The position numbers were made by a program, and so were the translations under genes. This document shows, one piece after another, positions 7,601 through 62,549 of a DNA stretch of 64,000 nucleotides. This DNA comes from an uncultured Actinomycetota bacterium. GTDB taxonomy: Bacteria > Actinomycetota > Acidimicrobiia > Spongiisociales > UBA4744. The stretch is taken from NCBI GenBank assembly GCA_963707435.1, contig CAVPPF010000005.1, positions 70,832 through 134,831 on the forward strand, given 5' to 3'. Position 1 is the first letter of the stretch. Each line of letters begins with the position of its first letter. A model generated the notes under the pieces. It worked only from the letters and a program-made list of their open reading frames with translations, did no database searches and was not told the origin of the DNA.

Positions 7601-7645
7601 GTCGTCAGACATCAGTTTTCGGTTGTCAGCTATCAATCATCAGAG
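7601..7645. repeat. Heptamer-periodic array (NTCAGNN)x6 in the guaB3 upstream spacer
   Basis: gtcagac atcagtt ttcggtt gtcagct atcaatc atcagag shows 7-nt periodicity. Confidence 0.5.
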
Positions 7646-7720: not shown

Positions 7721-7775
7721 ACTCGAGTACCGAGTACCGAGTACCGAATACTGAGTACTGAATACTGAGTACTCT
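7721..7775. repeat. Tandem heptamer repeat (GAGTACY)x7; contains repeated AGTACT/GGTACC palindromes
   Basis: actcgagtac cgagtac cgagtac cgaatac tgagtac tgaatac tgagtac tc. It ends 8 nt before the CPBP start codon. Confidence 0.9.
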
Positions 7776-7783
7776 TCTCTCCC

Positions 7784-8545
7784 GTGAACCTGCCACCGCT
7801 CTCCGCCCCGCCATCGCATCGCTGGCGTTTCAGCGACTTCCTGTTCGTCTGGTTGGCCGGGTTCGTCGCATCCCTGATAGGCACCGCCGTCGGGATCGCC
7901 CTCGGTATGGGAGGGTCGCTCGAGGACCTGGCAGTCAGCGTTCCGCCCGAGTTGTTGTTCTGGGTAGCCCTCCCTGCCCAGTTCTTCGGGATGTTGCTGG
8001 CCCTGGCCTGGGTGAGTCAGCGGCGCGGATCGGGCAGTTTCGCAACGGATTTCGGATTCTCGATCCGGGTGCAGGACATCGGGTTCCTGTTCCTCGGCAT
8101 GCTGCTGCTTCTGGTCCTGGCGTTCGCGTTGACGCCGCTGGCAGAGCTGTTCGGAGTCGACGAAACCCCTCAAGTAACGACCGAGGCCATCGCCCAGGTC
8201 GTGGATCTCCCGACCCAACTCATGATCGTGCTGGCGGTGGCGATTGTCACGCCGATCGTTGAAGAGTTGACGTTTCGCGGTTTGCTCCTCCGCTTTCTGG
8301 AGGAACGGATGAACCCCCGGCGGGCCCTCGTGATCTCAGCAGTGCTCTTCGGGGCGTTCCACGTGCTGGGGACGAGCGGAACGGCCGGAGCCATCATCGC
8401 CATGGTGCAGACGTTTCTGGCCGGGCTGGTTCTGGCGTACGTGACCCAGAAGTCGGGCAAGCTGAGCCGCGCCATCTTCGTCCACGCCGGCTTCAATCTG
8501 ATCACGATTCTCGTGCTCTTCTTCGTCCCGGATCTGGGGATCTGA
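7784..8545 (+). CDS. CPBP-family intramembrane metalloprotease (CAAX protease / Abi)
   Basis: 253 aa, multi-TM. Conserved EELTFRG and FGAFHV motifs. Confidence 0.8.
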   Translation: MNLPPLSAPPSHRWRFSDFLFVWLAGFVASLIGTAVGIALGMGGSLEDLAVSVPPELLFWVALPAQFFGMLLALAWVSQRRGSGSFATDFGFSIRVQDIGFLFLGMLLLLVLAFALTPLAELFGVDETPQVTTEAIAQVVDLPTQLMIVLAVAIVTPIVEELTFRGLLLRFLEERMNPRRALVISAVLFGAFHVLGTSGTAGAIIAMVQTFLAGLVLAYVTQKSGKLSRAIFVHAGFNLITILVLFFVPDLGI

Positions 8546-13030: not shown

Positions 13031-13114
13031 GTGGCTGCAAAGAAGCCAGCACCCAAGAAGGCCGCTCCCAAGAAGGCGGCCCCCAAACCTGCCGCAAAAC
13101 CCAAGAAGAGGTAA
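13031..13114 (+). CDS. Small basic protein, 27 aa: (M)AAKKPAPKKAAPKKAAPKPAAKPKKR
   Basis: GTG start 5 nt after a strong SD GAAGGAAGG (13017-13025). Stop TAA 13112-13114. Perfect terminator 17 nt downstream. Lys/Ala/Pro repeats resemble actinobacterial HU (HupB) tails. Confidence 0.55.
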   Translation: MAAKKPAPKKAAPKKAAPKPAAKPKKR

Positions 13115-13192: not shown

Positions 13193-13774
13193 CTACGGGT
13201 CGATGAGCTCGCCCGGCGGCATGCGGGTCACCGGTGGCTCCAGCCCTACCAGTTGCCTGACCATGTGGGCCGTTGCCCCCCACAAGACCTCTCCCTCGAG
13301 ATCGAAGAACCAGACCTTATGCTGTCGCCACAACTCAAAACGCCAGCCGTCTGCAGCGGCGAAGATATCAACCGGCGGTTCAAGAATCTTGTCGACCTCA
13401 CGCGGGGACGGTTGGAGCTGAGGGACGCTCTTGATCCACCCGACCACGGGAACAACCAGCAGGGAGTACTCGATGGTGTGTATCGCCGGGAGGAACCCGA
13501 CGACGTCGACCAGCGCCGGGACGAGCCCCACTTCCTCTTCAGCCTCCCGCAGCGCCGTCCCCACGGGACCACCGTCACCATCGTCCGGGCGCCCGCCGGG
13601 AAAGGCCAGGTGCCCGGCGTGGGTGGGCATGGTCATAGGTCGCTTCGTGAGAATGATCCGCGTCACACCTCGCTCGTCGTCGTAGAGCGGAACGAGAACG
13701 GCGGCTTGTGGCAATGGACCGGGCGGCGGGGGTTCGGGTTGGATCCCGGGAAAGCGTCTGGAGAATTCGTTCAC
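13193..13774 (-). CDS. NUDIX hydrolase (CoA pyrophosphatase NudL-like)
   Basis: 193 aa. Nudix box GGRPDDGDGGPVGTALREAEEEVGL. Confidence 0.8.
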   Translation of the reverse strand: MNEFSRRFPGIQPEPPPPGPLPQAAVLVPLYDDERGVTRIILTKRPMTMPTHAGHLAFPGGRPDDGDGGPVGTALREAEEEVGLVPALVDVVGFLPAIHTIEYSLLVVPVVGWIKSVPQLQPSPREVDKILEPPVDIFAAADGWRFELWRQHKVWFFDLEGEVLWGATAHMVRQLVGLEPPVTRMPPGELIDP

Positions 13775-13809: not shown

Positions 13810-14427
13810 ATGGATGACCTGTCGACCGCTCCCCGATTCTCGCGCCGGTTCATGCTGCGCCCGTTCAAGCGCCGTGACGCCGACGAGATGGCAGAAGCCG
13901 TGGCGGCATCGCAGATGGAGCTCAACGAGTGGCTGCCCTGGGCTCATCTCGGCTATTCGAAAAGCGATGCGATCGGCTACATCCGCGACAGCCTCAAATC
14001 GTGGCGGGAGGAACGAGCCTACGACCTGGCGATTCGCAGGCTCGACGACCCGGACCGCCATATCGGCAACATCTCGGTCTGGTTCGTTTCACGATCGTTC
14101 AAGACGGGAGAAATCGGCTACTGGGTTCGCACCGACGAGACCGCCCAGGGAGTCGCGACCGAGGTTGCGGCCCGGGCGCTCCAGATCGCCTTCGAGGAAC
14201 TCAAGATGCATCGGGTGATCCTCCGGATCGCGGTCGGCAACCGGCCCAGCGAACGCGTTGCGGAGAAGCTCGGGTTCTTCCGCGAGGGAATCCTCAGGGA
14301 GGAGATCAAAGTCCGCGGGACCTGGCTCGATCACTCCGTATGGGGACTGCTCGAACACGAGTACCGCAAGAACCTCGGGTTGTACCGGGGTCTCATCGGA
14401 GCGGGCGAGGAAGTAGTCGAGAAGTAG
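13810..14427 (+). CDS. GNAT family N-acetyltransferase (RimJ/RimL-like)
   Basis: 205 aa. Acetyl-CoA-binding region RVILRIAVGNRPSERVAEKLGF. Confidence 0.8.
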   Translation: MDDLSTAPRFSRRFMLRPFKRRDADEMAEAVAASQMELNEWLPWAHLGYSKSDAIGYIRDSLKSWREERAYDLAIRRLDDPDRHIGNISVWFVSRSFKTGEIGYWVRTDETAQGVATEVAARALQIAFEELKMHRVILRIAVGNRPSERVAEKLGFFREGILREEIKVRGTWLDHSVWGLLEHEYRKNLGLYRGLIGAGEEVVEK

Positions 14428-25719: not shown

Positions 25720-26451
25720 ATGGACTGGTGGGAACAGTTCTTCGTGGGCGATTGGGTTCAGATCCATGCCAACTTCTGGAGCGAAGAGGAGAGTGCCGCC
25801 CAGGCCGACACCATTGAACGCCATCTGGGCCTCGAACCCGGCGATCGGGTTCTGGACGTGCCGTGCGGCGAAGGACGGATCGCTCGCCAACTGGCCGGGC
25901 GGGGATACCGGGTTACGGGGGTCGATCAATCCGCCCCCCTGCTCGATCTCGCCCGTCGGACTGCAGCCGCAGCAGACCTCGACATCACCTGGGAACAGCG
26001 GGACATGCGCGACCTGCCCTGGGATGGCACGTTCGATGCAGTGGTGTGCTGGTGGGGCAGCTTCGGCTACTTCGACGAGGCGGGCAATGCCTCATTCCTG
26101 GAGGCAACGGCCCGAGTTCTGAAACCGGGTGGACGTTTGATCCTCGACAACCACGTGGTGGAGACGGTGCTGCCGGTTTTCCAAGCTCGCGGATGGGAGA
26201 AGGCCGGCAACGGTTTCACGCTCACGGAGAACCGGTGGGATCACACCACCGGCCGCATCGAGGGAATCTGGACCCTCATCGTCGATGGCAACCAGACCGA
26301 CAAGCAGGCTTCCGTCCGGCTGTACACCTATGCGGAACTGGCCGGACTCGTCAAGAAAGCTGGGTTCTCCAGCGTGCGGGCCGTCGACCCGGCCACCGAT
26401 GCCGAGTTTCAACTGGGTTCACGCCGGCTGGTGCTGATCGCCGAGAAGTAG
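25720..26451 (+). CDS. Class I SAM-dependent methyltransferase
   Basis: 243 aa. Motif I VLDVPCGEGRIA. Confidence 0.8.
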   Translation: MDWWEQFFVGDWVQIHANFWSEEESAAQADTIERHLGLEPGDRVLDVPCGEGRIARQLAGRGYRVTGVDQSAPLLDLARRTAAAADLDITWEQRDMRDLPWDGTFDAVVCWWGSFGYFDEAGNASFLEATARVLKPGGRLILDNHVVETVLPVFQARGWEKAGNGFTLTENRWDHTTGRIEGIWTLIVDGNQTDKQASVRLYTYAELAGLVKKAGFSSVRAVDPATDAEFQLGSRRLVLIAEK

Positions 26452-26492: not shown

Positions 26493-26873
26493 CTACGCGT
26501 CGTGCTCGCCGACGGCAACGGCGAACACCATCGCCGTCACATCCGTGTGCGTGATGGTGACGAGCACTTCGGTCACGCCAAGCTGATCGGCCCTCGCCCG
26601 TGCCGTCCCGAAGAGATTGACCCGCGGAGCGCCGCCACCGGTTATCTCGATGTCCTGCCAGCGGATCTGCCGCCACCCTGTTCCCATGCTCTTCATGACC
26701 GCCTCCTTGCCGGCAAACCGGGCGGCGTATCGGCGCGCCGGGTGGGCAAACCGGGAGGCGTAGGCTCGTTCGTGATCGGTGAACACCCGTTCGGGGAAGC
26801 GTTCGTATTTTTCGAGCAGAGCCTGAACCCGATCGATCTCGGCCAGGTCGACGCCCAATCCAATGATCCGCAT
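26493..26873 (-). CDS. acpS: Holo-[acyl-carrier-protein] synthase
   Basis: 126 aa. MRIIGLGVDLAEIDRV...FAGKEAVMKS. Confidence 0.9.
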   Translation of the reverse strand: MRIIGLGVDLAEIDRVQALLEKYERFPERVFTDHERAYASRFAHPARRYAARFAGKEAVMKSMGTGWRQIRWQDIEITGGGAPRVNLFGTARARADQLGVTEVLVTITHTDVTAMVFAVAVGEHDA

Positions 26874-28363: not shown

Positions 28364-30190
28364 CTACTCGACCGTCACGCTCTTGGCCAGGTTGCGGGGC
28401 ATGTCGATGTCGTGGCCGAGTTCCTTGGCCACGTGGTAGGCAAGGAGTTGCAGCGGGATAATCGACAGGACCGGGCTGAGGAAATCGACGGTGCGCGGAA
28501 TGCGCAGCACATGGTCGGCGTACTTGGCAACCGCAATGTCGTCCTCGTAGGCAACGGCCACCACGCTGGCACCGCGGGCCTTCACCTCCTGCAAACCGGA
28601 GATCGTTTTGTCGTAGAGATGCGACTGCGTCAGCACGACGACGACCGGCGTACCTTCCGTGATCAAGGCCAGGGTCCCATGCTTCAGCTCCCCGGCGGGC
28701 ATCGCCTCCGAGTGCATGTAGGAGATCTCCTTCAGCTTCAAGGAACCCTCGGTCGCCACGGCATAGTCCAGGCCCCGCCCGATGAAGTAGATATCGTCGA
28801 TTCCGGCTATCCGGCGGGCGATATCGGCTATATCGGCATCCATATCCAGTACCCGCTTTGCTTTCCCGGGCAGACTCCGGAGCTCAGCGGAGAGTTCGGC
28901 CGCCTGCTCAGCAGCAATCGTTCCCCGATCGACGCCCAGACGGAGCGCGAGAAGGTAGGTGCCGATCAACATCGCCGTGTACGCCTTGGTGGAGGCGACC
29001 GCTATCTCCGGACCGGCGCGGGTGTAGAGGATGTCTGCGGCATCACGGCTGAGCGTGCTACCCACCACGTTGGTGATGGCCAGCATGCGGGACCCGAGCT
29101 CTGTTGCGAGACGGGCGGCGGCCAGCGTATCGGCCGTCTCGCCGGACTGACTGATCGCGATCGTCATGGTGCCGGGGAGAATCAACGGATCCCGGTAGCG
29201 CAACTCGTGTGCGTAGTCGATCTCGATCGGGATCCGCAATGCCTTCTCGAGCACATCACGACCGACCAGGCCGGCGTGGTAGGCCGTCCCGCACGCCGTT
29301 ATCCAGATCTTCTCGAGATTCGCCACAAATCCGTCCGGGAAATCGACTCCCTCGAGCACAACGGAGCCGTCCGGCTGCAAACGTCCTCGCAGTGTCTCTT
29401 CGATCACGTCTGGCTGCTCGTAGATCTCTTTCAGCATGAAGTGCGGGTACCCGCCCTTTTCCGCCTGACCGGCGTCCCAGGTCACCTCCATGGGGGCGCG
29501 CTCAACCGGCGTTCCATCGATGGTCTGTACCGTCGCTCCGTCCACGGTGATATCGACCATCTCACCGTCCTCGATCACAAGGACGGAGCGGGTGTAGGGA
29601 AGGATCGCCGGGATGTCGGAAGCCAGGAAGGTCTCCCCCTCACCGAACCCGACGACCAGAGGGCTGATCATCCGGGCGGCGACAATCCGCCCCGGCTCGC
29701 GAGAACTCATGACCACGACCGCATATGCCCCCGTCGCCCGGCCGATAGCCCGGCGGACCGCCTCGAGAAGGTCCCCGTCGTACTCATCGGCCACGAGGTG
29801 CACCAGCACTTCCGTATCGGTATCGGAAAGGAAGCGGTGACCGGCTTCGATCAGAGCTTCTTTGAGCGGGAGGAAGTTCTCGATGATCCCGTTGTGAACG
29901 AGCACGAAATCCCCGGACGGGTCGGTATGCGGGTGAGCGTTCACATCGTTGGGTACCCCGTGGGTAGCCCACCGGGTGTGTCCGATACCGGCCGTTCCGC
30001 CGATCGGTCGGTGCTCGAGCAGTTCGTCGAGACGCTGCATCTTCCCGGCCGCTTTGCGCACCTCAATGCGACCGTTGTCGGCGATCGCGATTCCTGCTGA
30101 GTCGTATCCCCGGTACTCGAGTCGCCGCAGGGACGAAACGAGCAGGTCCTGGGCGTCGCGCGAACCGACGTAACCCACTATGCCGCACAT
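28364..30190 (-). CDS. glmS: Glutamine--fructose-6-phosphate aminotransferase (isomerizing)
   Basis: MCGIVGYVG... with tandem SIS domains, ending VTVE. Start ATG 30190. Confidence 0.96.
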   Translation of the reverse strand: MCGIVGYVGSRDAQDLLVSSLRRLEYRGYDSAGIAIADNGRIEVRKAAGKMQRLDELLEHRPIGGTAGIGHTRWATHGVPNDVNAHPHTDPSGDFVLVHNGIIENFLPLKEALIEAGHRFLSDTDTEVLVHLVADEYDGDLLEAVRRAIGRATGAYAVVVMSSREPGRIVAARMISPLVVGFGEGETFLASDIPAILPYTRSVLVIEDGEMVDITVDGATVQTIDGTPVERAPMEVTWDAGQAEKGGYPHFMLKEIYEQPDVIEETLRGRLQPDGSVVLEGVDFPDGFVANLEKIWITACGTAYHAGLVGRDVLEKALRIPIEIDYAHELRYRDPLILPGTMTIAISQSGETADTLAAARLATELGSRMLAITNVVGSTLSRDAADILYTRAGPEIAVASTKAYTAMLIGTYLLALRLGVDRGTIAAEQAAELSAELRSLPGKAKRVLDMDADIADIARRIAGIDDIYFIGRGLDYAVATEGSLKLKEISYMHSEAMPAGELKHGTLALITEGTPVVVVLTQSHLYDKTISGLQEVKARGASVVAVAYEDDIAVAKYADHVLRIPRTVDFLSPVLSIIPLQLLAYHVAKELGHDIDMPRNLAKSVTVE

Positions 30191-30231
30191 GGCAGTCTCC
30201 TTTGCCTGGTGATGGAGACCGGAAGGAACTA

Positions 30232-30406
30232 CGGGTCCGCGTACGGTCCCGTCCACTCCGATGTGGCCTCTGTCACCGGGGTCACCCCCGGGCTTTGCTC
30301 CACACCGTCACGACCGTGGTCGCCGAGAGGGCATCCGCCGAAACTCGATACTCCCTCTTCCTCGTCACCCGCACCGCCTGTAAAGGGGCGCGGGCCGGGC
30401 GCTGCT
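30232..30406 (-). ncRNA. glmS ribozyme: glmS ribozyme (GlcN6P-activated self-cleaving riboswitch) in the glmS 5' UTR
   Basis: The minus-strand transcript reads ...AGCGCCCGG...GGGUGACGAGGAAGAGGGAGUAUCGAGUUUCGGCGGAUGCCCUCUCGGC...AAGCCCGGGGGUGACCCCGG. This matches the conserved core GACGAGGA-GGAG-UAUCGA-UUUCGGCGGAUGCC-UC-CGGC and the P4 stem of the glmS ribozyme family. Confidence 0.85.
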
Positions 30407-30509
30407 TGATGTGTCCGTTCCCGGTCACTTTGTCCAGCGAAGACTAGCGCTGCACGTGACGTTCACAACCGTGAATGCTCTGCGGCGGCCGGCGGGTCGA
30501 CTTCCCCGG

Positions 30510-34823: not shown

Positions 34824-34935
34824 CGGGCTCCTTTCGCCAATCGAGGGTAGTCGGAAACCAGCGGCCGGTAGCCGGCACACGATCCTCGCGACCCGGCACC
34901 CGGCACCCGGTACCTGGAAACTGGGAAACGGCGAC

Positions 34936-40062: not shown

Positions 40063-40084
40063 AGAAGGTGTCCCGCTTCACTCG

Positions 40085-40150
40085 ACACGTACTACGTACC
40101 TCGTACCTCGTACCTGGTACCCACGACGAAGCACGGAATACGAAGTACGT
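40085..40150. repeat. Heptamer-periodic array (NNNGTAC)x about 9 in the adk-secY spacer
   Basis: cacgtac tacgtac ctcgtac ctcgtac ctggtac ccacgac gaagcac ggaatac gaagtac. Confidence 0.85.
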
Positions 40151-40159
40151 GGAGTGGGC

Positions 40160-41488: not shown

Positions 41489-41491
41489 TGA

Positions 41492-41596
41492 CTCTCAGTT
41501 CTCAGTTGTACGTTCTTCGTTCTCGTTCTTCAATCTCGGTTTCAGCTACCGGTAGCAGGCTACTGAGTACTGAGTACTGGATACTAAGTACACCTA
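41492..41596. repeat. Heptamer-periodic array in the secY-rplO spacer: (TCTCAGT-like)x8 then (TACTGAG)x4
   Basis: ctctcagt tctcagt tgtacgt tcttcgt tctcgtt cttcaat ctcggtt ... ctactgag tactgag tactgga tactaag tacacc tactcg. Confidence 0.85.
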
Positions 41597-42061: not shown

Positions 42062-42070
42062 ATCGTCCCT

Positions 42071-42109
42071 TACTCGTACTGAATACTGAGTACTGAGTAC
42101 TGAGTACTA
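42071..42109. repeat. Tandem heptamer repeat (TACTGAR)x5 in the rplO-rpmD spacer, running into the rpmD stop codon
   Basis: tactcg tactgaa tactgag tactgag tactgag tactac. The last unit supplies the rpmD stop (CTA on plus = TAG). Confidence 0.9.
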
Positions 42110-42298
42110 CTTCGTCTTCTCTTCCACCTTGACCAGGTGGGCAACTTTGTGGAGCATGCCTCGAACATCGGGAGTGTCCTGATGTTCGACCGTCTGCTGC
42201 ATCCGGCGCAAGCCGAGGCTGCGCACGGTAGCCCGCGTCTTGGGCTTTTGACCGATGATGCTCTTGACGAGCGTTACGGTGAGGGTCTTGTCGGCCAT
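42107..42298 (-). CDS. rpmD: 50S ribosomal protein L30
   Basis: 63 aa. [20 protein letters not shown]... Confidence 0.93.
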
Positions 42299-46067: not shown

Positions 46068-46477
46068 GTTTCCTCCCGCGTCACAAACTTGGTCTTGATG
46101 GGAAGCTTGTGTCCGGCGCGGCGCATCGCTTCGCGAGCCATGTCCTCCGGTACTCCGGACAGCTCGAACATGACCCGTCCCGGCTTCACCACTGCAACCC
46201 AGAACTCCGGGTTGCCCTTGCCGGAACCCATGCGCGTCTCGGCGGGTTTCTGAGTGACCGGTTTGTCGGGGAAGATGGTTATCCAAACCTTCCCGCCACG
46301 CTTGACGGTTCTCGTGATCGCCACGCGAGCGGATTCGATCTGTCGAGCCGTGATCCAGCCCTCTTCCAGAGCCTTGATCCCGTACTCGCCGAAGGAGACC
46401 CTGGTTCCGCCTTTGGCATTGCCACGCCGGCGACCCCGGTGCATCTTCCGGTACTTGGTTCGTTTTGGCATGAGCAT
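46064..46477 (-). CDS. rplP: 50S ribosomal protein L16
   Basis: 137 aa. [11 protein letters not shown]... Confidence 0.97.
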
Positions 46478-47637
46478 TAGGCATCACCGCCCTTGCCGTT
46501 CGACGGGTCGGCCGCGCCATCCTCAACCGCAGCTTCTTCAGCGGCATCGGCGGCAACCGGTTCCTCGGTCGCTTCGGTTACGGCCGGCTCGGCGATGGTC
46601 CCGGCAGCCACGACCTCTTTGGTCTCTACGTCGGCGGTGGGCTCCTCGACGAGTTCGTCGGGAGCGCCGGCAACCGGGCCGTCGACCTCTACGATCTCTT
46701 CGAAATCCTCGGCCGCAATGTCCGGTGCGCCTACTTCATCGACCGCTACCGTCTCGACCTCATCCTCGTACTCGCTCTTCGCCAGTTCGGGAGCAATCCG
46801 CTTGCCGCCCCCCGCCTCGATGAGGCGCTTGCCGTCTCGCTTGCCGCCACCGGCTTCGATGAGGCGCTTGCCGCCGCCGGCTTCGATCACCTTGGAACCC
46901 CGCTCGCCTCCCACGGCGTGCTCGGCTCGTGCCTTGGCAGGCGCCACGCGGCCCGGTGCACCGGAGGCGAGGGCAGCCTCAGCGGCAACTTTCTCGCGGG
47001 TGACCTTCAACGAGGTGACGACGTCGCCCTTGTAGACCCAAACCTTGATCCCGATGGCACCGACGGTGGTGCGAGCGGTGGCAGTCCCGAAATCGATGTC
47101 GGCCCGCAACGTATGCAACGGTACGCGACCTTCGCGGTACCACTCACGACGGCCCATGTCGGAACCGCCCAGGCGGCCGTTGGACTCGACGCGAACTCCT
47201 TCCGCTCCCGCTTTCATGGCAGTGGCAACTGCTCGTTTCATGGCGCGACGGAACGAGACGCGGTTCTCGAGTTGATCTGCGATGCCGCGAGCCAGCAGCT
47301 GCGCATCGGTCTCCGGATCCCGAACCTCGATGATGTTGAGCTTCACCCGGCGGCCGCTGAGTTTCTCCAGCCCGGCGCGGAGCCGATCGGCCTCCGACCC
47401 TTTCCGTCCGATGACGACACCCGGGCGGGCGGTGTGGATCTCGACGACGACTTTGTCGCGGGTTCGCTCGATCTCGATACGGGACACGGCGCCGCGGGTC
47501 AGCTCCTTCTGGAGATAGTCGCGGATCTGCCAGTCTTCATTGACGAGCTCTGTGTATTCCTTGTCGCTGTACCAGCGGGACTTCCAGTCCGTCACTATCC
47601 CGAGACGGAATACGTACGGGTGTACTTTCTGGCCCAT
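46477..47637 (-). CDS. rpsC: 30S ribosomal protein S3 with a long acidic C-terminal extension of about 150 aa carrying three LIEAGGGKR repeats
   Basis: 386 aa. Canonical S3 through about residue 230, then [32 protein letters not shown] and a Glu/Ala/Val/Asp-rich tail. Confidence 0.95.
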
Positions 47638-49141: not shown

Positions 49142-49149
49142 AACAAGTC

Positions 49150-49226
49150 CTCAGTTATCAGTTCACAGTTCTCAGTACCAGCCAAGCCGTCTGCCGACGA
49201 CCGATAACTGACAACTGATAACTCGC
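49150..49226. repeat. Inverted repeat built from CAGTTAT-type heptamers in the rplB-rplW spacer; predicted long RNA hairpin
   Basis: tcagttatcagttcacagttctcagta...N25...cgataactgacaactgataactcg. The 11-bp core AGTTATCAGTT is mirrored by AACTGATAACT. Confidence 0.75.
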
Positions 49227-49240
49227 GATACGTCTTCATC

Positions 49241-50962: not shown

Positions 50963-51273
50963 AGCTTGATCTCCACTTCTACACCGGCGGGAAGGTCGAG
51001 ACGCATGAGCGAGTCAACCGTCTTGGGAGTCGGCTCGAGTATGTCGATGAGCCGCTTGTGGATGCGCATCTCGAAGTGCTCCCGCGAGTCCTTGTCGACA
51101 TGGGGCGATCGGATGACGCAGTAGCGGTGAATCTCCGTTGGGAGCGGCACCGGGCCCTTGATCTTCGCCTGGGTGCGCACCACCGTCTCGGCGATTTTCC
51201 GCGCGGACTCGTCGACCACTTCGTGGTCGTAAGCCTTCAGTCTGATGCGGATCTTCTGTCCTTGGTCTGCCAT
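50959..51273 (-). CDS. rpsJ: 30S ribosomal protein S10
   Basis: 104 aa. Confidence 0.97.
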
Positions 51274-51281
51274 GTTCGCTC

Positions 51282-51336
51282 AACTCTGTTTCGTTCACGT
51301 ACTCAGTACTGAGTACTAGGTACTGGGTACTCGGTA

Positions 51337-51339
<3 letters not shown>
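51282..51339. repeat. Heptamer-periodic array (CTNNGTA)x about 8 in the tuf-rpsJ spacer, overlapping the tuf stop codon
   Basis: caactct gtttcgt tcacgta ctcagta ctgagta ctaggta ctgggta ctcggta ctag. The final GGTACTAG supplies the tuf stop TAG. Confidence 0.9.
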
Positions 51340-52527
<1,188 letters not shown>

Positions 52528-55537: not shown

Positions 55538-55753
55538 AGACCCTTCTCTCTTCTCTTCGGCACACCCCGACCCAAATGTGGGAACGGGTATTTACAGACG
55601 GAACAGCGCGTTCGCCGGGGCGAAAGCACCGATCCAGCCACTTCATCGCCCACAGGCCGCCGTGGCGACCTCAGGACACGCGGAAACGTGGCGGGAAAAC
55701 CGAGACGGAAGTATATGCGCGACCGGGAGATGTTGCAAAAGGCGCACTTGGGG

Positions 55754-55820
55754 CGTACTCGGTACTCAGTACTAGGTACTAGGTACTAGGTACTAGGTAC
55801 TCGGTACTCGGTACTTACTA
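55754..55820. repeat. Tandem heptamer repeat (GTACTNG)x about 10: GGTACTA x4 flanked by GGTACTC units
   Basis: cgtactc ggtactc agtacta ggtacta ggtacta ggtacta ggtactc ggtactc ggtactt actacc. It ends 12 nt before the start codon of the plus-strand gene at 55833 and lies about 220 nt upstream of rpsL. Confidence 0.9.
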
Positions 55821-55832
55821 CCCTCGCGTCCG

Positions 55833-56453
55833 ATGTTCATCACCGTTCCCCGCCCCGAGCTGCGCAGGCGGCTCCCTCAACTGATGATCGGTCTCGTCGT
55901 CGTTGGTGTTGGGTTTGCCTTGATGGTCGAATCCGACCTGGGCCTCGGCCCGTGGGAGGTCCTCCACCAGGGGATTTCGAATCGAGTCGGCATCCCCATC
56001 GGGACGGTCGGCATCTTCGTCGGGTTGCTCGTGCTGGGCGCCTGGATTCCCTTGCGCCAGCGACTGGGGGTCGGCACGGTGCTCAACGTCATCACCATCG
56101 GCATCGTGATCGATCTCACGATGCTGGCCATTCCTGATCTGAGCTCTCTCCTGATCCGCGGGCCGGCGCTGCTCGGTGGCTTGCTCCTGGTCGGAATCGG
56201 AGGAGGCCTCTATATCGGGGCGGGCCTGGGACCCGGCCCCCGGGACGGACTGATGACCGGCATGGCCGCTCGGGGCTGGTTCTCGATTCGGACCGCCCGC
56301 ACGCTCCTCGAGGTCACCGCGTTGACCGCCGGGTGGTTGCTGGGTGGAACCGTCGGCGTCGGCACCCTTCTCTTCGCCGGAGGGATCGGTCCGCTCGTGC
56401 AGATGTTCCTGGGCAGGCTGGCGATCGGCGAAAACATCTCTGTTCCGCCCTGA
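55833..56453 (+). CDS. YczE/YitT-family (DUF161-like) integral membrane protein
   Basis: 206 aa. Gly-rich TM helices with the GLGPWEVL motif. Confidence 0.6.
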   Translation: MFITVPRPELRRRLPQLMIGLVVVGVGFALMVESDLGLGPWEVLHQGISNRVGIPIGTVGIFVGLLVLGAWIPLRQRLGVGTVLNVITIGIVIDLTMLAIPDLSSLLIRGPALLGGLLLVGIGGGLYIGAGLGPGPRDGLMTGMAARGWFSIRTARTLLEVTALTAGWLLGGTVGVGTLLFAGGIGPLVQMFLGRLAIGENISVPP

Positions 56454-59077: not shown

Positions 59078-60550
59078 ATGAGCCTCGAACTCCGGGACAT
59101 CCACAAACACTTCGGCCCTGTACGCGCTAATGACGGGATATCGTTGACCGTCGAAGCAGGTGCTCTTCACGGCCTTCTGGGTGAGAACGGGGCCGGGAAG
59201 TCGACCCTGATGAAGATCCTGTCTGGATTCTATGCCCCGGATGCAGGAGAGATTGTTCTCGACGGCGAGCACATCCAACCCTCTTCTCCCAGAGATGCGA
59301 TAGCGCACGGAATCGGTATGCTCCACCAGGATCCCCTAGTTTTTCTGCCCCTATCCGTAGTTGACAACCTGCTGCTCGCCAGTCCAGGAAGTTTCAGAAT
59401 TGATCGGCGATCCGCGTACCGCGAACTGACACAGATGTGTGAGCGGTTTGGGTTCGACCTCGATCCAGACTCGCTGGTCCGAACTCTCACCGTTGGTGAA
59501 CGCCAGCAGCTTGAGATAGTGCGATTGCTATGGCTCGGTGCTCGGGTTCTCGTCCTCGACGAACCAACCACAGGTATCTCTGCGCCGCAACGCGTGAAGC
59601 TGTTCGAGACACTCCGAGTCCTGGCTGCCGATGGTATGAGTGTGATCTTTGTCTCCCACAAGTTGGAAGAAGTCGAGGACTTGTGCCAGCGCGTAACTGT
59701 GATGCGTAGCGGTCGAGTAGTCGGACATCTCGAAATGCCGAGCCCAGCTGAGCAAATGGTTGAAATGATGTTCGGCGAACCTGTCGCTATCGAAGGCCGA
59801 TCATCGATCGACCTCGGAGAGACGCTGCTATCGATTCAACATCTCACGGCCCATGAGCGGCTGCTTTCCATCGAAGATCTGAGCTTGGAGGTCAACGCGG
59901 CAGAGGTCATCGGTCTGGCCGGATTGGAGGGCAGCGGCCAGCGCACACTGCTGAGGGCGTGCGCAGGGCTTCAGCCAGCTTCCCGCGGGTTGATCTTGCT
60001 TGACGGTCGAGACATAACCGGTTCGTCCTATGCGCATCGGCTCGAGAGTGGCCTGCAATACCTTCCGGCGGGTCGGCTCGAAGAGGGGCTCGTTACCGGA
60101 CTGACCCTGACCGAACACCTCATCTTGAGCCAGCCGGACACTCAGTTTTTCGTCAACTGGGACGAAGAAGAGAGCAAGGCATCTACGACCATTGCGCAGA
60201 ACTCCATCAAGGGTCGACCATCATCGACGGCCGATGAACTCTCCGGCGGGAATCAGCAACGCTTGCTGCTGGCAATGTTGCGCCCGAATCTTCGACTTCT
60301 GCTCATGGAACATCCCACCCGCGGATTGGATATCGAGTCAGCAAACTGGGTGTGGAGCCAACTTCTCGCCCGTCGTGAGCACGGGACGGCAATCATGTTC
60401 GCATCGGCCGACCTAGATGAACTACTACGTTATTGCAACCGGATATCAGTGTTCTTCGGAGGAAGGGTTATCGCGGAATTGAAAGCCGAGGAAACTGACG
60501 TTGAAGACCTGGGCTTCCTGATCGGTGGCAAATTCAAGGACCCGGTATGA
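59078..60550 (+). CDS. ABC transporter ATP-binding protein with duplicated ABC domains (BMP / sugar-nucleoside type)
   Basis: 490 aa. Two Walker A (GENGAGKST; GLEGSGQRT) and LSGG signatures. Confidence 0.92.
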   Translation: MSLELRDIHKHFGPVRANDGISLTVEAGALHGLLGENGAGKSTLMKILSGFYAPDAGEIVLDGEHIQPSSPRDAIAHGIGMLHQDPLVFLPLSVVDNLLLASPGSFRIDRRSAYRELTQMCERFGFDLDPDSLVRTLTVGERQQLEIVRLLWLGARVLVLDEPTTGISAPQRVKLFETLRVLAADGMSVIFVSHKLEEVEDLCQRVTVMRSGRVVGHLEMPSPAEQMVEMMFGEPVAIEGRSSIDLGETLLSIQHLTAHERLLSIEDLSLEVNAAEVIGLAGLEGSGQRTLLRACAGLQPASRGLILLDGRDITGSSYAHRLESGLQYLPAGRLEEGLVTGLTLTEHLILSQPDTQFFVNWDEEESKASTTIAQNSIKGRPSSTADELSGGNQQRLLLAMLRPNLRLLLMEHPTRGLDIESANWVWSQLLARREHGTAIMFASADLDELLRYCNRISVFFGGRVIAELKAEETDVEDLGFLIGGKFKDPV

Positions 60551-61599: not shown

Positions 61600-62534
61600 A
61601 CGAGCTGGGTTCACTCATTGCTGCGGCAGCTCCTCTCGTGTTCGCAGTTGTCGGCGAGACCATCACCGAAAAAGCCGGCATCATCAACCTGTCCTTGGAA
61701 GGCAGCCTGATGCTGGCTGCGATGACCGGCTTCGCTGTATCGTTCGAAACCAACAGCCTCCTCCTGGGATTCCTCGCCGCTGCCATTGTTGGGATGCTGG
61801 TTGCGTTGCTCGTCGCTTTCTCCAGCATTTCCCTCAAGCTCAACCAGGTCGCCGTTGGATTTGTGCTGTTCCAGTTGTGCACTGACCTGAGCACGTTCCT
61901 TGGTCAGGCTTACGTTCGAATCCCGGGACCTTCGGTGCAAGCCCTCCCCATTCCACTGCTCGAAGATATCCCAATATTGGGCCCGCTGGTATTCGATCAA
62001 AACCTGGTTGTGTATGCCAGTTTCGTCGTAGTTATCGCGGCCTACTACTTCATGTTCCGCACACGGCCGGGCCTCGAGCTACAGGGCGTAGGTGAGCGGC
62101 CCGAAGCCGCACACGCCCGAGGCATTCCCGTCAATCGTCTCCGCTATCTGTATACGGCAATCGGAGGATCCCTGATTGGTGTGGCCGGAGCTTCTTACTC
62201 ACTAGCCGTCAAGCTCGGTTGGTCTTTTCAACACACGAGAAACCTCGGCTGGATTGCACTTGCCATCGTTATTTTCGGAGGGTGGCAACCCATCCGAGCG
62301 GCGGCCGGGGCCTATCTCTTTGCAGGACTGCTAACCCTGGCTCAACTGCTCCAGGAGTCCTTGCCGGGGATCGCCCAAATCCTTCCCACCATTCCGTTCC
62401 CGCTCATGATCTTCACTCTCGTCATTGTGTACAGCGATTGGCTGCGGAATTTGACCGACAGGTTCCCAGCCCTACGAACAGTATTTGCAAGCGAACCCCC
62501 CACCGCCATCGGCACAGTGTTCGAGGCGGACTGA
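61596..62534 (+). CDS. ABC transporter permease (BMP-type)
   Basis: 312 aa, multi-TM. 4-bp overlap with the previous permease. Confidence 0.88.
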   Translation: MNELGSLIAAAAPLVFAVVGETITEKAGIINLSLEGSLMLAAMTGFAVSFETNSLLLGFLAAAIVGMLVALLVAFSSISLKLNQVAVGFVLFQLCTDLSTFLGQAYVRIPGPSVQALPIPLLEDIPILGPLVFDQNLVVYASFVVVIAAYYFMFRTRPGLELQGVGERPEAAHARGIPVNRLRYLYTAIGGSLIGVAGASYSLAVKLGWSFQHTRNLGWIALAIVIFGGWQPIRAAAGAYLFAGLLTLAQLLQESLPGIAQILPTIPFPLMIFTLVIVYSDWLRNLTDRFPALRTVFASEPPTAIGTVFEAD

Positions 62535-62549
62535 GTACTCAGTACTCAG
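62531..62549. repeat. Short heptamer repeat (ACTGAGT/ACTCAGT) overlapping the permease stop codon
   Basis: ctgagtactcagtactcagg. The TGA stop lies inside the first unit. Confidence 0.7.

Follow-up and report, generated by a model that had tools for sequence, protein, structure and literature searches.

Two tandem arrays of heptanucleotides lie directly in front of the genes for a CPBP-family protease and a YczE-like membrane protein in a 64,000-nt stretch of DNA from an uncultured Actinomycetota bacterium (GenBank assembly GCA_963707435.1, contig CAVPPF010000005.1, positions 70,832 to 134,831, forward strand; referred to below as the window and numbered from its first letter). Both arrays probably belong to a dispersed, lineage-specific family of heptanucleotide tandem repeats that form hairpins; the family occupies intergenic DNA and is of the type described as long simple sequence repeats (LSSRs) or, in cyanobacteria, as short tandemly repeated repetitive sequences (STRRs). 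A first-pass annotation of this DNA had presented the two arrays as a special pair at membrane-protein genes, possibly acting as copy-number-tunable promoters or 5' untranslated regions (UTRs). This pairing does not hold, as the same heptamer family is also found within ribosomal-protein operons and in a convergent spacer. The two arrays and the genes they adjoin are:

7721–7775, unstranded: CPBP heptamer array, (GAGTACC)x3 followed by (GAATACT/GAGTACT)x4, with a self-complementary core AGTACY; the last unit merges into a -10-like hexamer.
7784–8545, plus strand: gene for a CPBP / Rce1-like intramembrane protease, 253 aa (Pfam PF02517, E 8e-22).
55753–55822, unstranded: yczE heptamer array of about 9 GTACTNG units, flanked by the promoter-like site of rpsL and the start of the yczE-like gene.
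55833–56453, plus strand: gene for a YczE-like / DUF6198 membrane protein, 206 aa, assigned to its family via orthologues with PF19700.

Both Tandem Repeats Finder (TRF) and direct reading resolve the CPBP array into 7.0 copies of a period-7 unit (7725–7773, 88% matches), ordered as three GAGTACC units followed by GAATACT, GAGTACT, GAATACT and GAGTACT. The seven units of the earlier (GAGTACY)x7 are thus recovered, and its 8-nt distance to the start codon applies when counted from 7775, the final unit itself ending at 7773 and leaving a gap of 10 nt to the GTG at 7784. At the second site TRF reports 8.7 copies of GTACTNG units (55755–55815, period 7, 92% matches) with a decayed tail extending beyond this core to about 55822, placing the ATG at 55833 17 nt past the last full unit and 11–12 nt past the degenerate tail; the previous description, (GGTACTN)x10 ending 12 nt upstream, is therefore slightly generous in its unit number (about 9) and accurate in distance if measured from the tail. 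The protease assignment is borne out by the Rce1-like Pfam match and the YczE-like assignment by orthologues carrying DUF6198, the window protein itself giving no Pfam match at E ≤ 0.001. Each of the two open reading frames (ORFs) begins at the first possible start codon past an upstream stop, and their orthologues align from residue 1. Two public assemblies call DUF6198 proteins of 240 aa (L107 357–1079 and L110 428–1150; L numbers denote related contigs throughout) versus 206 aa in the window, which is an annotation artefact of an ORF read through the heptamer array and illustrates that such arrays mislead gene callers.

Across the window, a 28-nt autocorrelation scan of periods 4–12 revealed strong self-similarity at period 7 only, in six regions, with none at periods 4–6 or 8–12 and none in 20 shuffles. 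All six regions fall in intergenic spacers of at least 40 nt, which make up 5.9% of the window (p ~4e-8). TRF returned about 10 period-7 arrays including the two introduced above, and heptamer elements occupy roughly 9 of the 28 intergenic spacers of this length, the remainder holding ordinary GC-rich hairpins or nothing. The heptamer regions have a GC content of about 51%. Five elements lie inside the minus-strand ribosomal-protein/secY/adk gene cluster (adk/secY, secY/rplO, rplO/rpmD, rplW/rplB and tuf/rpsJ) and must therefore be transcribed. The elements outside the two membrane-protein loci are:

34885–34930, minus strand: heptamer hairpin of (CCGGGTG)n-type units in a co-directional spacer, detected by TRF and the autocorrelation scan.
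40063–40159, minus strand: two-armed heptamer hairpin with (CGTACTT)n and (GGTACGA)n arms in the secY–adk spacer.
41489–41593, minus strand: composite heptamer element of AGTACTC and AACTGAG units in the rplO–secY spacer, with a weak fold (z -0.5).
42062–42113, minus strand: (AGTACTC)x4–5 array and hairpin in the rpmD–rplO spacer (RNA dG -23 kcal/mol, z -2.55).
49142–49240, minus strand: two-armed heptamer hairpin with (CAGTTRT)n and (AACTGAN)n arms in the rplW–rplB spacer.
51274–51342, minus strand: (NAGTACY)x6 array in the tuf–rpsJ spacer, with the tuf TAG stop codon within its first unit.
62530–62549, unstranded: short palindromic AGTACTC x2.9 in the convergent spacer of two permease genes, with a weak fold (z -1.1).

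Most elements fold with a 7-nt rhythm in which helices of 5–6 bp are split by symmetric 1x1 or 2x2 mismatches. Internal loops in 17 folded elements from the window and its relatives comprised 42 of the 1x1 type, 21 of the 2x2 type and 20 of all other types, and RNA folds reach z-scores of -2.5 to -6.4. A generic inverted-repeat finder missed every element, the 6-bp helices being shorter than its 8-nt seed, and each spacer was folded instead. In the usual layout, tandem heptamers make up the left arm and their complements the right arm (e.g. CAGTTRT/AACTGAN and CGTACTT/GGTACGA). In the arrays upstream of CPBP and yczE the 6-nt core (AGTACT, GGTACY) is its own reverse complement, and the direct array is consequently also an inverted repeat; the GGTACT core of the yczE array is self-complementary via G.U pairs. 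The predicted fold of the CPBP array has a dG of -25.5 kcal/mol as RNA (z -3.8) and a z-score of -4.6 as DNA. The yczE array reaches -40.5 kcal/mol as plus-strand RNA (z -2.9), a stability that rests on six G.U pairs, and as DNA it folds no better than shuffles (z +0.33). Among the operon elements, the secY–adk hairpin has an RNA dG of -49 kcal/mol (z -4.15; DNA z -3.5) and the rplW–rplB hairpin one of -42 kcal/mol (z -4.75). Upstream of the CPBP array there may also be the remains of a second arm:

7604–7645, unstranded: candidate degenerate left arm of six decayed heptamers, read by eye and by orthologue comparison.

Its heptamers (GTCAGAC, ATCAGTT, TTCGGTT, GTCAGCT, ATCAATC, ATCAGAG) escaped detection by TRF and resemble the left arms (GCCAGTC, ATCAGTT and so on) of two-armed hairpins present at the same site in L093 and L098.

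A number of more familiar roles for such structures were considered and rejected. A scan for intrinsic terminators was blank at the arrays, which have no U-tract and whose stems are not GC-rich, and an Rfam scan at gathering thresholds gave no match at the arrays, the sole match in the window being a glmS ribozyme (30250–30414). Sequestration of the start codon by pairing with flanking sequence is present in the folds of the window and inconsistent among orthologues. The supply of stop codons in all frames by the repeats is true for some units and orientations only and was dropped. A LexA box (RGTACNNNDGTWCB) in the AGTACT arrays is incompatible with the 7-nt register by hand check, and heptamer sites of the SARP type are ruled out as these are spaced at 11 bp and not contiguous.

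Species with flanking genes 85–90% identical to those of the window keep an element at the same spacers, built from other units and in other copy numbers. At tuf–rpsJ the units across relatives are AGTACY, CAGTTRT/AACTGAG, AGTCACG/CGAGACT, GTACTTC/GAAGTAC and GTCCGCT/AGCGGAC; three unit families occupy the rplW–rplB spacer; at least six occur upstream of yczE, including (CGGTCAG)x17; and the CPBP upstream region carries either AGTACT-type arrays or CCAGTNN/ACTGGAA hairpins. Identical unit families also reappear at different loci in different genomes, as for CAGTTRT/AACTGAN, which fills rplW–rplB in the window and tuf–rpsJ in L001 and L002 with a common, identical 18-nt start (GAGTTATCAGTTGTCAGT). 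The element is absent in some close relatives, namely at tuf–rpsJ in L130 (95.9% identical) and upstream of CPBP in L094–96, and is reduced to a remnant at tuf–rpsJ in L017.

Copy number also differs between contigs of conspecific identity at both membrane-protein loci, which is heterogeneity of the kind that the first-pass annotation proposed to look for, and the invariance across strains that would have spoken against its reading was not observed. At the CPBP site, L091 (98.7% identical) and L106 (97.1%) carry 5 units compared with 7 in the window, a 22–24-nt indel. The yczE site has four states among contigs 96.5–98.6% identical: the approximately 9 units of the window, about 5–6 units in L121–123, an explicit two-armed hairpin in L117 ((YCAGTAC)x6, a short loop and (GTACTNG)x7), and GTACTCA, GTAATCA and (GCAGTCA)x9 followed by a GCTGRAA arm in L118–120. 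Slippage instability of the tracts is supported by these data. Within an allele group, copy number is constant across samples, both in L121–123 and in L118–120 as far as the end of the shorter L120.

Other differences involve entire spacers. L118 is 98.6% identical to the window on one flank of the yczE array and 90.8% on the other; for L118 and L119 together, identity is 97.6–98.6% on the rpsL side (55769) and about 90.5–90.8% on the yczE side (55819). This implies that the repeat marks either a recombination breakpoint or the junction of an assembly chimera. At rplW–rplB the window and L127 share one allele with equal copy number and a single nucleotide polymorphism, and six other contigs with flanks 94–99% identical carry a different, 124-nt CCAGCCG/CTGGTYG hairpin; BLAST alignments stop exactly at this spacer.

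Two further observations concern the tuf–rpsJ region. L003 is about 85–88% identical to the window overall and is near-identical across the tuf 3' end and the tuf–rpsJ spacer (2 differences in about 140 nt, with the same array; L003 1550–1760 versus window 51270–51480), and its rplW–rplB hairpin comes from another family; L003 is either mosaic or a chimeric contig of the metagenome. L001 (5875–5896), L006 (1–23) and L010 (131–152) have a perfect GC-rich hairpin between the tuf stop codon and the heptamer hairpin, which is probably the real tuf terminator or stabiliser, and the window is without one.

The closest genomes are metagenome-assembled genomes of uncultured Actinomycetota/Acidimicrobiia, with one related contig labelled Acidimicrobiia UBA4744. 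All 13 close relatives have strong period-7 arrays, defined as at least 3.8 copies with a TRF score of at least 40, as do five further contigs with a GC content of about 60–62%; none of 66 other loci does (about 1 Mb; Chloroflexota, Mycobacterium, Solirubrobacterales and high-GC Acidimicrobiia). Exact-protein look-ups gave matches for S10, S12, S7 and L23 and none for CPBP, YczE, rplO and rpmD. A literature search found no paper on such heptamer repeats in Acidimicrobiia.

Comparable repeats are known from other bacteria. Many bacteria have heptamers as their most abundant class of long simple sequence repeat, and polymerase slippage is the origin ascribed to them (Mrazek 2007, as summarised in PMC4679880 and PMC4692102). 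The LSSRs of Mrazek, Guo and Shah (2007), as summarised in the same two papers, resemble the present family in the dominance of period 7, intergenic location, phylogenetic patchiness and a proposed slippage origin, with some Actinobacteria among the richest genomes; they differ in being direct repeats, no paired inverted hairpin arrays being described in that survey, and the lineage considered here was unavailable at the time. The family in the window shows the attributes of LSSR- and STRR-type repeats, i.e. tandem 7-nt units beyond chance, a period-7 excess, non-coding dispersal (in one window) and a patchy distribution among lineages.

The STRRs of cyanobacteria, with a repeat of 7 bp, fold into hairpins, among them one between hupS and hupL; their function is unknown, and roles in transcript stability or translational coupling have been proposed (Mazel 1990, as summarised in PMC2670836). 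They share with the present family the tandem 7-bp units, the occurrence of several families per genome, intergenic dispersal and hairpins between operon cistrons. They belong to another phylum, whereas the host here is an Acidimicrobiia-like actinomycetote of about 62% GC, and their units are e.g. CCCCAGT, TTGGTCA and CAACAGT as opposed to AGTACTN, CGTACTT/GGTACGA, CAGTTRT/AACTGAN, CCAGCCG/CTGGTCG and others. Compared with STRRs, a regular heptad mismatch pattern and unit turnover at fixed spacers are documented here. Strict STRR membership was rejected given the actinobacterial host and the differing units, and the arrays are best termed STRR-like.

The TAACTGA repeats of marine Beggiatoaceae, cyanobacteria and Bacteroidetes adjoin start codons lacking a Shine-Dalgarno (SD) sequence and occur inside ribosomal-protein operons (MacGregor 2015, PMC4679880). 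They likewise consist of heptamers a few nucleotides from starts without a ribosome-binding site, are over-represented in translation genes and internal to ribosomal-protein operons, and are nearly identical as a string to the local unit AACTGAN. In contrast, the BOGUAY genome has essentially one unit in 169 direct sets versus 1 indirect set, compared with many units, usually in hairpins, here; an orientation rule relative to the downstream gene was not seen in our elements. Arrays of GGGAATC in Xanthomonas lie between the same genes in related species with extensive length and sequence variation (Rehm 2015, PMC4692102). These and the GGGGAYT arrays of Nostoc are also variable intergenic heptamer arrays with occasional inverted pairs, but are G-rich quadruplex formers, whereas the present arrays have no G-tracts and form duplex hairpins.

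The best mechanistic precedent for the switch proposed by the first-pass annotation is the (ATCTTTC)n tract of Haemophilus influenzae hmw1/hmw2; the tract forms one arm of a 5'-UTR hairpin, RNase III cleaves this hairpin, and expression is tuned by the number of repeat units (PMC12721329). Here too a heptamer tract of polymorphic copy number serves as the arm of a long hairpin beside a gene start, although in predicted folds only. The hmw tract is a dedicated, conserved and transcribed unit of 11–63 copies at two adhesin loci of a pathogen, whereas the elements in the window are dispersed, their units are interchangeable and transcription of the two arrays in question is doubtful.

Repetitive extragenic palindromes (REPs) and the bacterial interspersed mosaic elements (BIMEs) built from them are dispersed imperfect palindromes in intergenic or intercistronic DNA that form species-specific families and whose RNA stem-loops can stabilise upstream mRNA; REPs follow a fixed consensus of about 35 nt with a conserved GTAG terminus and are linked to RAYT transposases. 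The present family resembles those of enterobacteria and pseudomonads in consisting of dispersed intergenic and intercistronic palindromes that would form RNA stem-loops, and differs in its variable number of 7-nt units and in that no fixed ends were seen. REP/BIME membership was rejected, as copies differ by whole units, fall into at least seven unit families and have no common ends. Noteworthy in the present family, though not new in kind, are its heptad-mismatch architecture and the cassette-like way in which elements turn over at fixed spacers.

The bearing of the arrays on the two membrane-protein genes depends on where transcription of these genes starts. The promoter-like features at the two loci are:

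7770–7775, plus strand: TACTCT, a -10-like TAnnnT box 8 nt before GTG 7784, putative promoter element.
55819–55824, plus strand: TACCCT, a -10-like TAnnnT box 8 nt before ATG 55833, putative promoter element.
55710–55738, minus strand: rpsL promoter-like site, TTGCAA-N17-TATACT, a near-invariant block in relatives.

No SD sequence precedes either CPBP GTG 7784 or YczE-like ATG 55833. TA-n-n-CT is kept at the same distance in 9 of 9 CPBP orthologues, and TAC[GC]CT stands 7–8 nt before the start in all yczE orthologues, while the neighbouring arrays change. A TAnnnT box close before an SD-less start is the signature of leaderless promoters in Actinobacteria. In the window as a whole, TAnnnT at -12 to -16 accompanies 7 of 31 SD-less and 0 of 43 SD-bearing genes (Poisson ~9e-5 versus composition), suggesting that leaderless mRNAs are frequent in this lineage. 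Genes that head transcription units and have the box 6–9 nt before an SD-less start include those at 13193–13774 (minus), 13810–14427 (plus), 25720–26451 (plus), 26493–26873 (minus) and 59078–60550 (plus). On the strength of the missing SD sequence and of the conserved TAnnnT 8 nt ahead of the start codon, we read both genes as probably leaderless, with the arrays upstream of the -10 box at about -15 to -65 (CPBP) and -20 to -80 (yczE). An array acting as a 5' UTR is thus improbable, the conserved box pointing to a start of transcription downstream of it. Under leaderless transcription, a 7-bp change would leave the geometry between -10 box and start intact and shift only DNA further upstream; the contention that each unit gained or lost rotates and displaces upstream elements would accordingly apply to the latter and not to the former.

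Both arrays occupy the gap between putative back-to-back promoters. The rpsL promoter-like site borders the yczE array, in agreement with the earlier placement of this array in a divergent region shared with the rpsL promoter, and a candidate promoter for an IMPDH-like gene (TTAGCA-N17-TACCGT, by direct reading) lies on one side of the CPBP array. In relatives the rpsL -35 element lies anywhere between about 80 and about 200 bp from the yczE start, and hence no spacing constraint is evident. A plus-strand yczE promoter using the palindromic TTGCAA as its -35 element was rejected, the putative -10 position not being conserved among orthologues. In L109 and L112/L114, where rpsL and the yczE-like gene are not divergent neighbours, no heptamer array stands upstream of the otherwise identical rpsL promoter block. 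The predicted rpsL leader of about 165 nt, from the promoter-like site to the GTG start (55538–55709, minus strand), is well conserved, has no Rfam match and may be an undescribed ribosomal-protein leader.

We posit that the family would evolve by expansion and contraction of tracts through replication slippage, by exchange of whole-spacer cassettes through homologous recombination between related strains, and by homogenisation of units inside each arm. Elements transcribed within operons would form stable intercistronic RNA stem-loops, with a plausible role in stabilising or partitioning polycistronic mRNA, as has been suggested for STRRs and REPs. The CPBP and yczE arrays, if placed just upstream of a leaderless -10 box, would alter only upstream spacing through their copy number, and expression, if affected at all, would respond in a graded and incidental manner and not through a dedicated ON/OFF switch. 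A regulatory effect of the arrays is possible and probably graded at most, and a dedicated switch function for the two membrane-protein genes is not specifically indicated.

Several points weigh against interpreting the arrays as members of a generic intergenic family. The yczE array folds well as plus-strand RNA only, which fits a transcribed 5' UTR better, and we infer both the leaderless status of the two genes and the untranscribed state of their arrays from the motifs at the starts. That the same spacers keep an element could be a sign of function, or just of a small number of permissive sites. The stability of the operon hairpins in the sense strand suggests selection at the RNA level, confounded though it is by composition. 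The more distant positive lineages mostly have one-armed direct arrays and not hairpins, and the census covers one 64-kb window rich in ribosomal-protein genes, as distinct from a whole genome.

Selection of this kind is the core of an alternative that we rate as unlikely, in which the elements are selected cis-elements with a dedicated RNA-binding protein, RNase or DNA-binding partner that control processing, stability or translation in highly expressed operons. Retention of hairpins at orthologous operon spacers despite full unit turnover amounts to compensation on the scale of whole arms; this, the symmetric mismatches every 7 nt, the enrichment in the ribosomal-protein cluster and the parallel enrichment of TAACTGA repeats in translation genes all lend the alternative support. 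The large operon hairpins are 14–21 kcal/mol more stable in the sense than in the antisense strand, with 6–8 G.U pairs, in three unrelated unit families; the sense strand of the secY–adk hairpin gains 14 kcal/mol and that of the rplW–rplB hairpin has 8 G.U pairs. Counts pooled from independent families give 35 G.U pairs in the sense strand and 15 in the antisense strand (p 0.007). No consistent bias is seen in arrays of the AGTAC type or at the two divergent loci. This asymmetry was downgraded as proof of RNA-level selection since the bias, although real, is confounded by the minus strand in intergenic DNA being G- and T-rich. The absence of the element in the close relatives L130 and L094–96, its reduction to a remnant in L017, and its presence in divergent spacers that are probably untranscribed further argue against selection, and neither a candidate partner nor an Rfam match was found.

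A more specific form of this alternative, in which heptad-periodic hairpins (6-bp helices with a mismatch every 7 nt) constitute a selected, lineage-specific class of cis-element read by a dedicated factor or RNase, strikes us as doubtful. Its corollary, that the class is kept at operon and promoter spacers with its sequence rewritten by slippage and cassette exchange, is similarly tentative, and it is speculative that the self-complementary, one-armed AGTACTN arrays are young 'proto-hairpins' from which two-armed forms arise after separate homogenisation of each half. If such a class did exist, the promoter-proximal copies could be evolvable rheostats for adjacent leaderless genes.

It is rather improbable that the arrays are contingency-type simple sequence repeats tuning or switching the CPBP protease and the YczE-like protein, by promoter geometry or by an RNase III-processed 5'-UTR hairpin as in hmw. 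Copy number and unit composition do differ at both loci between contigs 96–99% identical, the arrays abut both starts, and both seem more variable than the rplW–rplB hairpin within its operon, of which six samples have identical copies. As sense RNA the yczE array gives its best fold, with a predicted stem that extends to the bases right before the ATG, and hmw provides a precedent for a hairpin-forming heptamer tract whose copy number tunes expression. However, the repeat family also occupies housekeeping operon spacers and a convergent spacer, and, with most arrays lying in the ribosomal-protein/secY/adk cluster, is not confined to a few contingency genes of the surface, host-interaction or restriction-modification type. 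No conserved promoter on the gene strand was found upstream of the arrays, the palindromic TTGCAA having no conserved -10 box, and the conserved TAnnnT 7–8 nt before SD-less starts suggests leaderless transcription from downstream of them. Constant copy number inside each allele group over several samples and wholesale unit replacement in orthologues, by which no specific sequence would be required, also count against switching. The view of these tandem repeats as a classic substrate for slipped-strand switching is therefore supported as regards instability and polymorphism, but not as regards a gene-specific switch, the family being generic to intergenic DNA. Finally, small mobile or copy-and-paste repeats of REP/BIME or miniature inverted-repeat transposable element type would account for the recurrence of unit families such as CAGTTRT/AACTGAN at other loci in other genomes and for the swapping of entire spacers between close relatives, but are very unlikely given that conserved termini, target-site duplications and fixed length were not seen, that copies differ chiefly by whole 7-nt units, that transitional units in one array (GTACTCA, GTAATCA, GCAGTCA) point to mutation in place followed by homogenisation, and that no transposase turned up nearby, although none was searched for.

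Taken as a dispersed, slippage-prone intergenic family, the arrays call for caution over claims of phase-variable membrane proteins, since a repeat near a start codon says little when its family is everywhere. The clade offers a clean comparative system in which the same spacers are occupied and flanks conserved while units, copies and cassettes change at 96–99% identity, permitting tests of selection on the hairpin, on the 7-nt rhythm or on neither, and rates of slippage and recombination are measurable from existing long-read metagenomes. The origin and function of heptanucleotide repeats have been unexplained since the description of the cyanobacterial STRRs. Short-read assemblies are also likely to break or collapse at the arrays.

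Other features of the window are independent of the heptamer arrays. A 15-nt tandem repeat (AAGAAGGCAGCACCC, 3.1 copies, 13040–13086) is unrelated to the heptamer family. The glmS ribozyme/riboswitch (minus strand; Rfam RF00234, 90.4 bits, E 1.4e-19) is directly upstream of a 630-aa ORF (28364–30256, minus strand), presumably glmS. Ribosomal protein S3 (46477–47637, minus strand) is unusually long at 386 aa (377–395 aa in relatives) owing to a C-terminal extension, which holds a 39-nt (13-aa) tandem repeat of 1.9 copies with 91% identity (46799–46873).

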